Positions 5,620-43,666 of a stretch of 64,000 nucleotides of DNA are shown one piece after another. Both the position numbers and the translations under genes were made by a program. Position 1 is the first letter of the stretch, and each line of letters begins with the position of its first letter. Source of the DNA: a virus. The stretch lies in the IMG/VR virus record IMGVR_UViG_3300021091_000012; one strand, 5' to 3'. A model generated the notes under the pieces. The model saw nothing but the letters and a program-made list of their open reading frames with translations, was not told the DNA's origin and searched no databases.

Positions 5620-5627
5620 TATAAATA
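5620..5627 (-). promoter_or_regulatory. Putative late promoter TATTTATA
   Basis: Motif 26 nt upstream of the sheath ATG. Confidence 0.6.
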
Positions 5628-6443: not shown

Positions 6444-7177
6444 TTATATTAGTAATAATGCGTTTACTGTATTATTTGCTCCTTTTCCTGTATTATTTAT
6501 ATAATTTGGAAAAGCTTGATTAAACGTTTCATCTACTGATCCATTAGTGTTTAATCTTACTATACGGTTTGGTATAAATGATCCACTATATGTTGTAAAT
6601 GCATTTCCCCAATATATTGAACCATTACTATCAATTGCTAAACCGTTTGGAGTAGATGAAGCCAAAGATAAGTCGGTAGGAATTACATTAGCATTGAAAG
6701 TATCATCTAAAGTACCACTAGGGTTAATTCTAATTAGATATCTAGCAGTAGATCCACTATATGTTTGACTTGCATTAGCACATATTATTTTTCCATCGGA
6801 TTGAAGGGCTAGTGAAAGTCCTGAGCCGGCTAGTCCAGTGCCTACATTAAACGTAGTATCACGAGTACCATTTTGGTTCATTCGAACTATTCGGTTAACA
6901 GTAGAACCACTATAGTTAGTAAATACACCTACTGTAACATATTTGCCATCGGGTTGTTGTTGTATATCATGTACCGTATTATTAAATCCTGCTCCGGGAT
7001 TAAAAGTTGAGTCTAGAACTAGATTACCATTTCCATCTATTTTAGCAATTCGGTTAAGGGTAGGGGCATTATATTGAGTAAATCCTCCTCCAAGTAGTAT
7101 ATATTGTATCGATGCTGGTATTGGTGTTGGAATAAACACAGGTTGGGTATCAGTTAAAATGCAAAAGGTGTAAACAT
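6444..7177 (-). pseudogene. Delta-60 (DUF5122-type) beta-propeller repeat protein with an apparent 1-nt frameshift near the start (or intact from GTG 7139)
   Basis: Repeats QPDGKYVTVGVFTNYSGSTVNRIVRMNQNGTRDTTFN. ATG 7177 gives MFTPFAF then TAA; one extra T in the T4 run at 7156-7159 would join it to the main frame. Confidence 0.55.
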
Positions 7178-7180
7178 AGC

Positions 7181-8413
7181 TTATATTAATCTCCTTACAG
7201 AATTTACATAAACATCGGTAGAATCAAAAGTAACTAAAGATATAATATCTATAGCGTTAGCAACTTGCGAACCTGTGTATGCTGATCCTGATGGTTGTTT
7301 TACTACAGACGGAAAGGATACAACACCGTTTCCACCCGAACCTTGAGTTACTCTAATGTTTGCAGTTTTTCCAGGACGGATGTTTGTAAATGCAATATGT
7401 GTAGTTGTAGCATTTGCTAATGTTAATGTAAAAAAATTGCCAGTGCCTAAGTTAATGGATGCTGTTTGTGATGCTATTGATACTGATGATACATTGCCTC
7501 GCAATGACCCTGATAATACTGTTGATCCGGTAACAATAAATGAGCCTGTGATTATTACATCTTGTATAAGTGGATTAACATATGAGGCTGTTGAAGCAAG
7601 TGAAGCGGTACCATAAAATTGTGCATTTTCCCAATCTAGTGATGTGTTTCCAGCGCTATCAAAAGCTCTTCTGCCTTCCCAATCTATTGATCCATTTCCA
7701 GCACTATCAAGAGCTGCTCTGTTTTCCCAACTTATTGATGTGTTTCCAGCGCTATCAAAAGCTCTTCTGCCTTCCCAATCTATTGATCCATTTCCAGCGC
7801 TATCGAGAGCTGCTCTAGCGTCCCAATTTATTGATGTGTTTCCAGCAGTATCGTAAGCTTCTCTAGCGTCCCAATATATTGCTGTAACTCCACTAATATC
7901 GCCCAATACACCATTTACCCATTGAACTCGAACCGTACCATTTTGATCAAATAAAACTGGTTTACCACCACCAATTGTACCTAATGTGTCGATACCACCT
8001 ATAGACCCAGATGCGAATATGCTTGCTGCAATAGAGACAGTTGAACCATCAAATGTGAATCTAGAACTACCACCTAAAACTCCACTGCTATTATATTGTA
8101 CATTATTGGTTGATCCAGCAGCTCTTAAAGTTGTTACATAAGAAGCTGATGTAGCAATTGAAGCAGTTGTTGCAAATGAAGCGGTACCTAAAAGTGAACC
8201 AGTTAATGAACCAGATGCTCTTAAAGCTAAACTTGAGGTTAAGGATGTAGTAGCAAATGATGCACTTACAGCTTGCAGCACATAAGATGCCGTTTGAGAT
8301 GTAGTAGCAAATGAAGCAGTTCCAAGTAATGAACCTGTAAAACCTGATGTAGCAGTTACAGATGTAAGGGCTGCACTAGAGCCAGATACTATGACTTTTT
8401 TCCAATTTGGCAT
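7181..8413 (-). CDS. Ser/Thr/Gly-rich virion fibre protein with 16-aa tandem repeats
   Basis: MPNWKKVIVSGS N-terminus, TAS/TGS-rich stalk, DSAGNxSIxW repeats, C-terminal beta domain (NFFTLTL...IDIISLV). Confidence 0.65.
   Translation of the reverse strand: MPNWKKVIVSGSSAALTSVTATSGFTGSLLGTASFATTSQTASYVLQAVSASFATTSLTSSLALRASGSLTGSLLGTASFATTASIATSASYVTTLRAAGSTNNVQYNSSGVLGGSSRFTFDGSTVSIAASIFASGSIGGIDTLGTIGGGKPVLFDQNGTVRVQWVNGVLGDISGVTAIYWDAREAYDTAGNTSINWDARAALDSAGNGSIDWEGRRAFDSAGNTSISWENRAALDSAGNGSIDWEGRRAFDSAGNTSLDWENAQFYGTASLASTASYVNPLIQDVIITGSFIVTGSTVLSGSLRGNVSSVSIASQTASINLGTGNFFTLTLANATTTHIAFTNIRPGKTANIRVTQGSGGNGVVSFPSVVKQPSGSAYTGSQVANAIDIISLVTFDSTDVYVNSVRRLI
7613..7948 (-). repeat. Seven 48-bp coding repeats with a higher-order 96-bp duplication
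   Basis: 7640-7702 is identical to 7736-7798. Units read D-[ST]-A-G-N-x-S-[IL]-x-W, degenerate in the first two. Confidence 0.9.
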
Positions 8414-8426
8414 ATCAATGTTTTTG

Positions 8427-8488
8427 TGTTGTGGTTAAATACATACACTTATGCCGTGTATATGCCTACTTCCTTTCGGCCAACAACA
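8427..8488 (-). promoter_or_regulatory. Candidate structured cis-regulatory RNA leader (three-way junction)
   Basis: P1 TGTTGT(T)GG/CCACAACA; CC-GAAA-GG hairpin; long stem ATATACAC/GTGTATGT. Lies between the promoter motif (8498-8505) and ATG 8413. Confidence 0.5.
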
Positions 8489-8513
8489 TTTATTTAGTAT
8501 AAATATGTCGTAA

Positions 8514-8753
8514 TTAGTCTTCCACGGCTTTAGCCGCTCTTCTTGCCTCAGCTTTTACAGCTCTTTCTAGTTCAGCTGCTTTTTGAACTTCTGCTTGTGC
8601 TTGCATTTGTTTAATGTGTGCAAGTTCGTGTTCAAGTTTATGTTGAAGGTTTGCTACTAACTTAGCGTCTTTACCACTTATCGTAATAGCGTCTAGCGAG
8701 TGTCTCAGTAGGGTAATATCACCTACTGTTAGATGAATTGAAAAAATATCCAT
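8514..8753 (-). CDS. Small helical protein, paralog of 8756-8953
   Basis: A 34-aa core aligns without gaps to the neighbouring ORF. Confidence 0.65.
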   Translation of the reverse strand: MDIFSIHLTVGDITLLRHSLDAITISGKDAKLVANLQHKLEHELAHIKQMQAQAEVQKAAELERAVKAEARRAAKAVED

Positions 8754-8755
8754 AA

Positions 8756-8953
8756 CTACTTATCTTGTTTTGTAATCTGCTCGGTGTATTGATTCTGTAG
8801 TTTGATAATCATGTTGTAAAAAACCTCAACCTGCTCTCCAGTAATGCTTACCGATTTCATGCAATTCAAGATGAACTCCAACTCTTGAGCATTAAGCTCA
8901 TTTGGATTGTGATTAGGAACCTTTGCTCCAACTATTTTATTGACAATACCCAT
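8756..8953 (-). CDS. Small helical protein, paralog of 8514-8753
   Basis: Core LNAQELEFILNCMKSVSITGEQVEVFYNMIIKLQ. Confidence 0.65.
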   Translation of the reverse strand: MGIVNKIVGAKVPNHNPNELNAQELEFILNCMKSVSITGEQVEVFYNMIIKLQNQYTEQITKQDK

Positions 8954-10074: not shown

Positions 10075-10135
10075 GTTATATTATTTTTGTGTGTTGTGTA
10101 TAATTAGGCTTTGCATATAAATAGTCTGTGGATAT

Positions 10136-10448: not shown

Positions 10449-11636
10449 TTATGCGAATTTACCTACAGCTACTACTTCATCGGCTGCTATTAAGTTAAAT
10501 CCTAATTCACTTATATCTAAAACCAAAGTACACGTTCCATTTCCGTTATCAACAAAGCTAGTAATGGCATTTGGTTCAACGTGTTGCCCATTTACAAAGA
10601 ACATAAAGTTTGAAACACTTGTTGGTAATATTCCAGTTGGTGCTTGTAGGAATGATGCGGTAAACAGTGCAGTATCCGGTACCGATACGGTTGTAGCTAA
10701 TTTAGCTATATTTGTATTTAAGTATGCTGTAAGTGTAGCGCTCACTAGATTTCCTGGATTTGGTGTTTGTGTAATAGTAGGTTGTGAAATTGTTGTAGGT
10801 ATTCCAGTTGTTAGTGTATCAATTGTTGCTCCATCTACATCTACTGTTGCATCAATAGTAATTTGTCTTGAGTCGAATGCTTTGGAAGATTGTTTTTTGC
10901 TTAGGTTTTTAGCTAGTGTGTCTGGAATAATATATCCAAACATTGTAATTGTAAAAGCCGTTCTTACTACCCGATCTTGATCTTGTAGTAAGTCTGTTGT
11001 GTTTGTAAAGCTATCAATCTTAGTCCTAAACTTAAACCTTTCTGGATCACCCCAAAAAGAACCTTCTGTATATATGACCGGTTCCACTAAGTTATTCATT
11101 TGATCCTCAAACTCTGTCCAAATAATAACATCATACGTAACATCTACAAATTCTGGTATTACTGTTGTTACAAAGCTTTTGATTGGTTTTGAGTTTGTTA
11201 ATACACTAAACTGATCGTATTTGTTTTGCTTGCCATACTTAATCTCCTCCGTAAAATAGAGTTGTGGAAAATTTGCATCTACTTTAGAGCCTAAAGTTTT
11301 ATTTTTAGTTACACTAGTCCTTCTAAATGATATTAGTGGTGTTTGTATTTTTCCATTCTTATCTCTAAAGTAACCATCAGCTTGCATGTTTTTCCACTTT
11401 TCTGGAGCGCCGTGCATGACTGGAACTGGAACTTGTTTTCCGAATTCAGTAACTTGTGGTCTAATTACGTTATCAAAATACCATTTAATACAATAATCTA
11501 GATCAAACAAACCAATGCGCAATTCTTTAAGAGTGTCATCATCTCTTCTCACATCATTTGCTCTAGTGAATCGAGTATCTTCAACTCCCTTTGAAAGCTC
11601 GTATTGTGATTTTGGTAAGTTTTTCTTTGTATACAT
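10449..11636 (-). CDS. gp15: Tail terminator / sheath stabiliser (T4 gp15-like) with a C-terminal beta-rich extension
   Basis: VPVMHGAPEKW, PLISFRR, PEFVDVTYDVIIWT, DQMNNLVE; follows the gp13/gp14 genes. Confidence 0.7.
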   Translation of the reverse strand: MYTKKNLPKSQYELSKGVEDTRFTRANDVRRDDDTLKELRIGLFDLDYCIKWYFDNVIRPQVTEFGKQVPVPVMHGAPEKWKNMQADGYFRDKNGKIQTPLISFRRTSVTKNKTLGSKVDANFPQLYFTEEIKYGKQNKYDQFSVLTNSKPIKSFVTTVIPEFVDVTYDVIIWTEFEDQMNNLVEPVIYTEGSFWGDPERFKFRTKIDSFTNTTDLLQDQDRVVRTAFTITMFGYIIPDTLAKNLSKKQSSKAFDSRQITIDATVDVDGATIDTLTTGIPTTISQPTITQTPNPGNLVSATLTAYLNTNIAKLATTVSVPDTALFTASFLQAPTGILPTSVSNFMFFVNGQHVEPNAITSFVDNGNGTCTLVLDISELGFNLIAADEVVAVGKFA

Positions 11637-43649: not shown

Positions 43650-43666
43650 TTAGTATAAATATGACT

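Follow-up and report, generated by a model that had tools for sequence, protein, structure and literature searches.

A tail-fibre gene in 64,000 nucleotides of viral DNA (IMG/VR record IMGVR_UViG_3300021091_000012; this whole stretch is referred to below as the window) is preceded by a small RNA that folds as a three-way junction, and about 140 distinct copies in viral metagenome contigs share this junction. Comparison of these relatives confirms that the leader is a real and widely conserved three-way-junction RNA. It is a new RNA family, uncatalogued in Rfam 15. From its position and anatomy we consider it moderately probable that the leader acts in cis on the fibre gene, as an attenuator or operator of its translation, with the fold hindering initiation.

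Tail fibres determine which hosts a phage can attack, but little is understood, T4 apart, of how their amounts are set against those of other late proteins. The leader described here is a widespread RNA element tied to a single fibre gene family; it is represented by at least 140 distinct sequence variants from environmental viromes and by one cultured phage–host pair (vB_FspM_immuto and Flavobacterium sp. LMO8) that allows direct experiments. The same core occurs in phages that rely on Shine–Dalgarno initiation and in phages that do not, which amounts to a natural experiment on initiation control in Bacteroidota, where the rules of initiation are still being worked out. Should the junction bind a ligand or a protein, it would define a new class of sensor and offer phage engineers a compact regulatory component.

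The window comes from a large phage genome whose genes run on the minus strand. Its products include a tail sheath (PHROG 23 match) whose closest cultured relatives, at about 45% identity, are those of Microcystis phage Mel-JY01 and Flavobacterium phage vB_FspM_immuto, the sheaths of T4-like cyanophages being more distant relatives. Mel-JY01 carries ribosomal protein S21 in its structural module (locus L201, 2198–2425); an apparent S21 in the window was rejected as a chance-level match inside a large ORF without S21 likeness. Ahead of the fibre gene, 92 nt separate the stop codon of a 79-amino acid ORF (8514–8753) from the fibre ATG at 8413, and the parts of the RNA are found in this interval (Table 1). 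ARAGORN identified no tRNA or tmRNA gene between positions 8000 and 9000.

Table 1 The leader RNA, its parts and the neighbouring genes in the window
Feature	Position	Strand	Basis or remark
Late-promoter-like octamer	8498–8505	minus	9 nt upstream of P1
Whole RNA motif, 66 nt	8424–8489	minus	match to covariance model R1
P1, 5' strand, with bulged U at 8482	8480–8488	minus	compensatory changes
P2 hairpin, 2 bp and GAAA loop	8472–8479	minus	basal C–G pairs nearly invariant
J2/3 linker, AAG	8469–8471	minus	letter conservation
P3	8436–8468	minus	3 basal bp, 2-nt 3' bulge, G–U/C–G/A–U step, variable distal stem
P3 hairpin loop, 7 nt	8449–8455	minus	first 5 nt complementary to 8413–8409
J3/1, single A	8435	minus	letter conservation
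P1, 3' strand	8427–8434	minus	ends 13 nt before the ATG
A-rich unstructured linker up to the start codon	8414–8426	minus	composition across the family
Regulated gene, 410-amino acid tail-fibre protein starting MPNWKK	7181–8413	minus	PHROG 9017, tail fiber
p79, small helical protein, conserved upstream neighbour	8514–8753	minus	nearest-ORF counts, AlphaFold2
p65, small protein, paralogue of p79	8756–8953	minus	iterative searches

A preliminary description, made by eye from the letters of the window, had proposed a closing helix (P1), a 2-bp GNRA hairpin (P2), an AAG linker and a long stem (P3), with the closing helix ending 13 nt from the start codon. All of these elements were found where that description placed them on the minus strand, and the 3' strand of P1 ends exactly 13 nt ahead of the ATG. 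P1 pairs 8488–8480 with 8434–8427 to give 8 bp, with the U at 8482 bulged. Folding of the single sequence, carried out on both strands, gave a stability no better than chance: the minimum free energy is −15.9 kcal/mol (z = −1.30) and 23 of 200 shuffled sequences are at least as stable, and the consensus fold scores −15.4 kcal/mol against a minimum of −16.7. The case from the window sequence alone would therefore have been weak, and we call the structure real because of the comparison with relatives rather than from single-sequence folding. A 7-codon mini-ORF (8466–8489, minus strand) begins one base ahead of P1 and stops in the base of P3; its ATG is missing from most homologues and it is probably accidental.

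Relatives of the leader were collected in two ways. A search of viral contigs with the fibre protein identified 80 loci, and nearly all of those that include the fibre N-terminus share the leader. Fifty aligned distinct leaders from this protein-found set were used to build a covariance model (R1), which finds a single copy in the 64-kb window (81.1 bits, E ~1e-21; the next-best match has E = 1.3) and matches 70 of the 80 loci, in every case on the gene strand, with three of these copies lying outside the seed. The second set was obtained blind to the protein, by scanning viral contigs with a DNA pattern made from the conserved junction letters only. Among the 120 matches listed, 119 are real copies and one is a chance match, and the scan supplied a set of 92 distinct sequences. 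Model matches lie on the gene strand without exception in both sets (71 of 71 in the first and 99 of 99 in the second).

The preliminary description had named covariation in homologous leaders as a check to be made, and the outcome is clear: the leader is conserved, with compensatory changes beyond those seen in controls. Paired positions are filled by standard pairs in 94.3% of cells in the first set and 96.1% in the second, compared with 28–47% when the structure is slid along the alignment, and 14 of the 22 pairs have changed on both sides in each set. For four of five covariation measures, none of 500 shuffles reaches the observed value in either set; for the fifth, which concerns further standard pair types, 7 of 500 do so in the first set and none of 500 in the second. 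The covariation score is 0.32, against 0.13–0.17 in shuffles, and RNAalifold independently recovers P1, P2 and both parts of P3. G–U pairs make up about a tenth of the cells, and one of them is kept in 86 of 92 sequences; being both frequent and conserved, they imply that only the sense strand can fold, and hence that the conserved molecule is RNA.

One cultured carrier was identified, Flavobacterium phage vB_FspM_immuto (137891–137948, 44.5 bits), in which the RNA stands directly before a gene annotated as a 'putative tail fiber-like protein' and an A–U pair substitutes for one otherwise invariant G–C pair. The RNA was not found in Pelagibacter phage HTVC008M or in Microcystis phage Mel-JY01 (best E = 0.6). 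When bacterial and archaeal genomes were scanned with the same pattern, a single real copy was present among 120 matches, on a contig binned with a Pelagibacter MAG, and we therefore conclude that the motif belongs to phages.

The two sets together define an almost invariant core. It consists of the two G–C pairs closing P1, the two pairs with which P2 begins, both linkers (AAG and A) and the foot of P3. P1 is a helix of 8 bp in which a single bulged base precedes two invariant G–C pairs, and compensatory changes are seen at six of the eight pairs in the first set and at seven in the second. The two basal C–G pairs of P2 are nearly invariant and its third pair covaries; the length of P2 (2–8 bp in other copies) and its loop are free to vary. 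Of the linkers, J2/3 reads AAG in 49 of the 50 distinct protein-found leaders and J3/1 is A in all 50 (these letters were fixed in the pattern scan, so that the second set is not independent at them). P3 is built in a constant order of three base pairs, a 2-nt bulge, a G–U pair, a C–G pair, a freely covarying pair and a variable tip. Its middle basal pair is A–U or G–C with no exception, in a ratio of 32:18 in the first set and 22:70 in the second. The second base of the P3 bulge tracks this pair, being A with G–C and U with A–U in 135 of 142 sequences, which may reflect either a base triple or shared descent. A tertiary pair between the P1 bulge and a P3 bulge base was considered and rejected, the contingency table having no pairing pattern.

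The leader begins downstream of a promoter-like octamer, which the preliminary description had placed 84 nt from the ATG; this distance is correct, the octamer occupying 8505–8498 on the minus strand with the fibre ATG at 8413. Across the window the octamer is present 20 times where 8.8 would be expected, a count equalled in none of 100 shuffles, and 18 of these copies occupy the gene strand (for example at 5620–5627, 10116–10123 and 43654–43661). Most other promoters had been said to lie 4–26 nt from their ATG, and this holds for 11 of the 18 gene-strand octamers when distance is taken to the ATG of the next ORF of at least 40 amino acids. The octamer looks like the late promoter of the window's phage, and a transcription start at the leader is suggested by the motif. 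It differs from the late-promoter octamer of T4, of which it is a near mirror image. Elsewhere, its first seven letters are found 2–10 nt before P1 in 103 of 147 distinct copies.

The distance from the RNA to the gene is tightly constrained: in 138 of 143 copies, 6–27 nt (median 12) lie between the end of P1 and the ATG. In the other five (loci L014, L015, L018, L094 and L167) the RNA is 108–119 nt from the ATG; these longer spacers contain extra hairpins, and the one in L014 ends 3 nt before the start codon. Across the family the linkers are 55% A and 5% C. Among the 138 copies with a start codon within 60 nt, two classes were assigned. Class I has 100 of the 138 copies, the window included. 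The promoter-like motif mostly ends 2–10 nt before P1 and most members, the window among them, are without a Shine–Dalgarno-like site; an A-rich linker leads from P1 to the ATG. Class II, with 24 copies, has no promoter motif. A Shine–Dalgarno-like site is present, and the small upstream gene has its stop codon no more than about 3 nt from the first base of the motif. In 19 of the 24 class II copies the Shine–Dalgarno-like site overlaps the 3' strand of P1, which in this class holds four of the six Shine–Dalgarno bases of the fibre gene, and for one class II copy (L092) the free-energy minimum is the junction itself, with the Shine–Dalgarno site paired. Shine–Dalgarno sites precede 67% of the ORFs in class II loci but 10% of those in class I loci, from which we conclude that initiation follows different rules in the hosts of the two classes. 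Class I fits hosts among the Bacteroidota.

A further feature of the initiation region is that a hairpin loop of the RNA is often complementary to it. Complementarity of at least 5 nt between a loop and the start codon plus the following Pro codon is seen in 44% of 136 RNAs, compared with 1.4% of random hexamers, although these figures are inflated by kinship in the main clade. In class II the complementary loop belongs to P2 in 16 of 18 copies, its sequence constant while the stems around it covary; in class I it is that of P3 in about a third of the copies. In the window, P3 loop bases 8455–8451 match 8413–8409, that is, the start codon and the next two bases. Pairing of a loop with the start codon is a putative feature of many copies; about 45% of copies have no loop that matches the start region over at least 4 nt. 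A second candidate, base pairing between the P1/P2 junction and the start region, was tried and set aside: the CCA Pro codon is preferred both with the RNA (125 of 151) and without it (8 of 9).

These observations give the leader the placement of a cis-regulatory element: it stands beside the start codon, on the gene strand and before the same gene throughout. Overlap with the ribosome-binding site is seen in class II, by way of the Shine–Dalgarno bases in P1; class I has no such site to overlap, and the case there is one of proximity to the start codon and of loop complementarity to it. The search for an intrinsic terminator between the promoter motif and the ATG found none. The leader is not a transcription attenuator, since it has no terminator and just 13 nt are left after P1.

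The preliminary description suggested a translational operator or switch that sets fibre stoichiometry. Translation control is supported by the anatomy, with the RNA near or over the ribosome-binding region, and the setting of stoichiometry would be a reasonable purpose. We envisage that the conserved core keeps P1 closed beside the ribosome-binding region. In hosts that use Shine–Dalgarno sites, the site of the fibre gene would be sequestered as part of P1. In Bacteroidota-like hosts, which would include that of the window's phage, no Shine–Dalgarno site would be involved and P1 would abut a short A-rich landing region. In many copies a loop would in addition pair with the start codon region: that of P3 in the window, that of P2 in class II. 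When folded, the leader would keep fibre output below that of other late genes with the same type of promoter. Relief in class II could come from translation of the small gene ahead of the RNA: its stop codon touches P1, and ribosomes terminating there could open the fold and couple the two genes. Outside class II, a factor of some kind could act on the conserved core. Repression, the mechanism of its relief and its purpose are what we infer from this arrangement. In hosts without Shine–Dalgarno sites, the effect on initiation of a helix that stops 13 nt short of the ATG may be only weak. Because a simple hairpin would suffice for occlusion, the invariant junction suggests that there is an extra partner; the core probably either holds the RNA in a three-dimensional form in which the loop meets the start codon or is read by such a partner.

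One candidate for this partner is a protein, as already proposed in the preliminary description, which pointed to the neighbouring small proteins. In this reading a phage-encoded repressor or activator, either p65 or p79 or unassembled fibre protein acting through its conserved N-terminus, would bind the RNA as an operator, tying synthesis of the fibre to its assembly. We regard this as possible but less likely than not, the candidates being named from synteny. The leader is part of a module with a fixed order, in which one or more small helical protein genes are followed by the RNA and then by the fibre gene. Among the 120 protein-blind matches listed, 117 lie just upstream of an MPxWKK-type fibre gene, and in two of these loci (L179 and L183) the protein begins VPNWKK from a GTG start instead of ATG; two further matches have a homing-endonuclease gene between the RNA and the fibre gene. 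In 128 of 136 contexts the closest ORF upstream belongs to the small-protein family, and the RNA follows about 146 of 150 terminal small genes. Within this very variable module the RNA core and the fibre N-terminus are the two most conserved parts. The constancy of the small-gene neighbours and the conservation of these two parts speak for a protein-bound operator. The fibres are strongly mosaic in their C-terminal portions, whose lengths run from 120 amino acids to more than 1700, and tblastn searches of cultured phages with the fibre or its N-terminus gave no match. Against an operator protein, the remaining four terminal small genes precede a fibre paralogue without the RNA, and for this reason a role for the small proteins as fibre partner or chaperone fits better than one in RNA binding. 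Their structure also speaks against it, p65 and p79 being near-neutral helical hairpins without a recognisable RNA-binding fold or family.

The small proteins themselves form a viral-only family of 50–100 amino acids, with about 200 ORFs in loci L001–L204 and one or two copies directly upstream of an xxWKK-type fibre gene. Iterative searches started from p65 and from p79 reach one and the same family of 197 ORFs. No member has a Pfam or PHROG match, and the clusters that resemble p65 in a protein atlas are viral only and unnamed. The AlphaFold2 model of p79 is a helical hairpin with a long helix (pLDDT 87), and a fold search with this model returned only generic helical hairpins with E above 2. 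Likeness of the small proteins to T4 gp57A received an hhalign probability of 0.07, in a weak test with a single-sequence template. The family may serve as a fibre partner or chaperone.

The partner might alternatively be a metabolite or an ion, the leader then being a riboswitch in which a ligand stabilises P1 and turns fibre translation off or on. Like a protein partner, this would refine our reading of the leader as a translational attenuator or operator rather than replace it, and we regard it as rather unlikely. A riboswitch would be expected to keep its core invariant while helix length and sequence vary, as is observed, and P1 would double as the expression platform, together with the Shine–Dalgarno site in class II. 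One core is moreover shared across hosts with different initiation regimes, so that any effector would have to be universal or phage-made. Against this, the RNA offers only about eight conserved unpaired bases for a pocket, a structural protein downstream gives no hint of a ligand and no known riboswitch model matches. The preliminary description had been unable to match the leader to a known riboswitch or ribozyme, and comparison with Rfam bears this out, no Rfam 15 family matching. Searches with E values up to 10, of the surrounding 1.4 kb and of a 106-nt slice, returned nothing beyond chance microRNA and snoRNA rows, and ten diverse other carriers searched at E = 5 gave nothing at the RNA.

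Two groups of known riboswitches come close. The glutamine riboswitch (glnA RNA) is a small junction RNA known from marine phage metagenomes, and it resembles the leader in being a small junction with a purine-rich conserved segment. Its Rfam model (RF01739) matched neither the 106-nt slice (E = 10) nor the ten other carriers (E = 5), and membership in that family is ruled out by this result. SAM-II, the SMK box and preQ1-II are translational riboswitches in which the Shine–Dalgarno site lies inside the aptamer. Like them, the leader places a folded domain before the ATG and, in class II copies, a strand of the closing helix holds the ribosome-binding site; unlike them, it matches no Rfam riboswitch, and its carriers are lytic phages that have it ahead of a gene for a structural protein.

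A bolder combination of these ideas, which we consider possible but not probable, is that the junction is a sensor of a small molecule or a phage protein that switches synthesis of the receptor-binding fibre, with an anticodon-like loop clamping the start codon. If true, this would apply both to T4-like phages of Flavobacteria and to those of Shine–Dalgarno-using marine hosts; the loop would be built like the anticodon loop of initiator tRNA, and the junction would represent a new riboswitch or operator class dedicated to the host-recognition proteins of phages.

Translational control by structured RNA has several precedents in phages. The T4 lysozyme gene (gene e) has a hairpin that occludes its ribosome-binding site, and the late promoter lies inside this hairpin so that late transcripts escape. 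The leader resembles gene e in that the initiation region of a gene in a T4-like phage is placed in local structure. It differs in that the promoter-like motif is upstream of the whole structure and a late transcript would carry the structure intact. Known phage translational operators include the gene 32 pseudoknot and the RegA and gp43 sites of T4, and the coat-protein hairpin of RNA phages. As in these, a structure at the initiation region would limit one protein, the limiting being what we propose here. In the phage operators, however, the structure is a hairpin or a pseudoknot and its protein partner is proven; the leader is a three-way junction whose partner is putative. The gene 32 pseudoknot is cited as a phage translational operator in a 2023 catalogue (PMC10690425), which also describes GP20-a, GP20-b and unnamed candidates from IMG/VR, all covarying RNAs within 25 nt of phage gene starts. 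GP20-a and GP20-b differ from the leader in sequence, fold and downstream gene; both are in Rfam and neither was matched. We found no description of the leader in the literature searched, although the 8,495 unnamed IMG/VR candidates of that catalogue could include it (PMC10690425).

Three other explanations do not involve control of initiation and fare less well. The RNA could be a 5'-terminal stabiliser or processing signal that sets the half-life of the mRNA. The class I motif does end 2–10 nt before P1, which would put the helix at the very 5' end of the transcript, but in class II no promoter precedes the RNA, which lies within a polycistronic message. The invariant junction, the fixed spacing to the ATG and the Shine–Dalgarno site within the helix would all be unneeded, and we judge this improbable. 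It is very improbable that the RNA is catalytic, for instance a ribozyme that cleaves itself, and in this way separates the message of the small gene from that of the fibre: phage DNA is a setting in which new ribozyme classes were found and the junction is suitably small and conserved, but no Rfam ribozyme model matches and the tight coupling to the start codon and the Shine–Dalgarno site would be unexpected.

Least credible of all is that the conserved segment acts as DNA, in module exchange or as a homing target; HNH and GIY-YIG genes inserted at exactly this place in two contigs and the mosaic C-terminal parts of the fibres are what it would predict, but compensatory changes preserve the helices as the sequences drift, and frequent, conserved G–U pairs suit one strand alone. 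The insertions are an HNH-type and a GIY-YIG-type endonuclease gene lying between the RNA and the fibre in L086 (minus strand, around 1802–1861) and L145 (minus strand, 11255–11315), respectively; in L086 the first three codons of the fibre gene precede the insertion. The conserved segment seems to serve as a homing site.

Some further features of the fibre genes of the window can be recorded. The 410-amino acid protein has tandem repeats of about 32 amino acids (DWEGRRAFDSAGN...), seen in the translation of 7580–7860 (minus strand), and the gene downstream of it (6444–7139, minus strand) encodes a DUF5122 beta-propeller repeat protein (Pfam E = 2e-32). A paralogous fibre gene, whose product starts MPTWKK, has a 41-nt leader (10075–10115, minus strand) that resembles the 3' end of the RNA only, having the 3' strand of P1 and the A-rich linker, with the remaining parts missing. 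The MPTWKK leader may be a decayed copy of the RNA.
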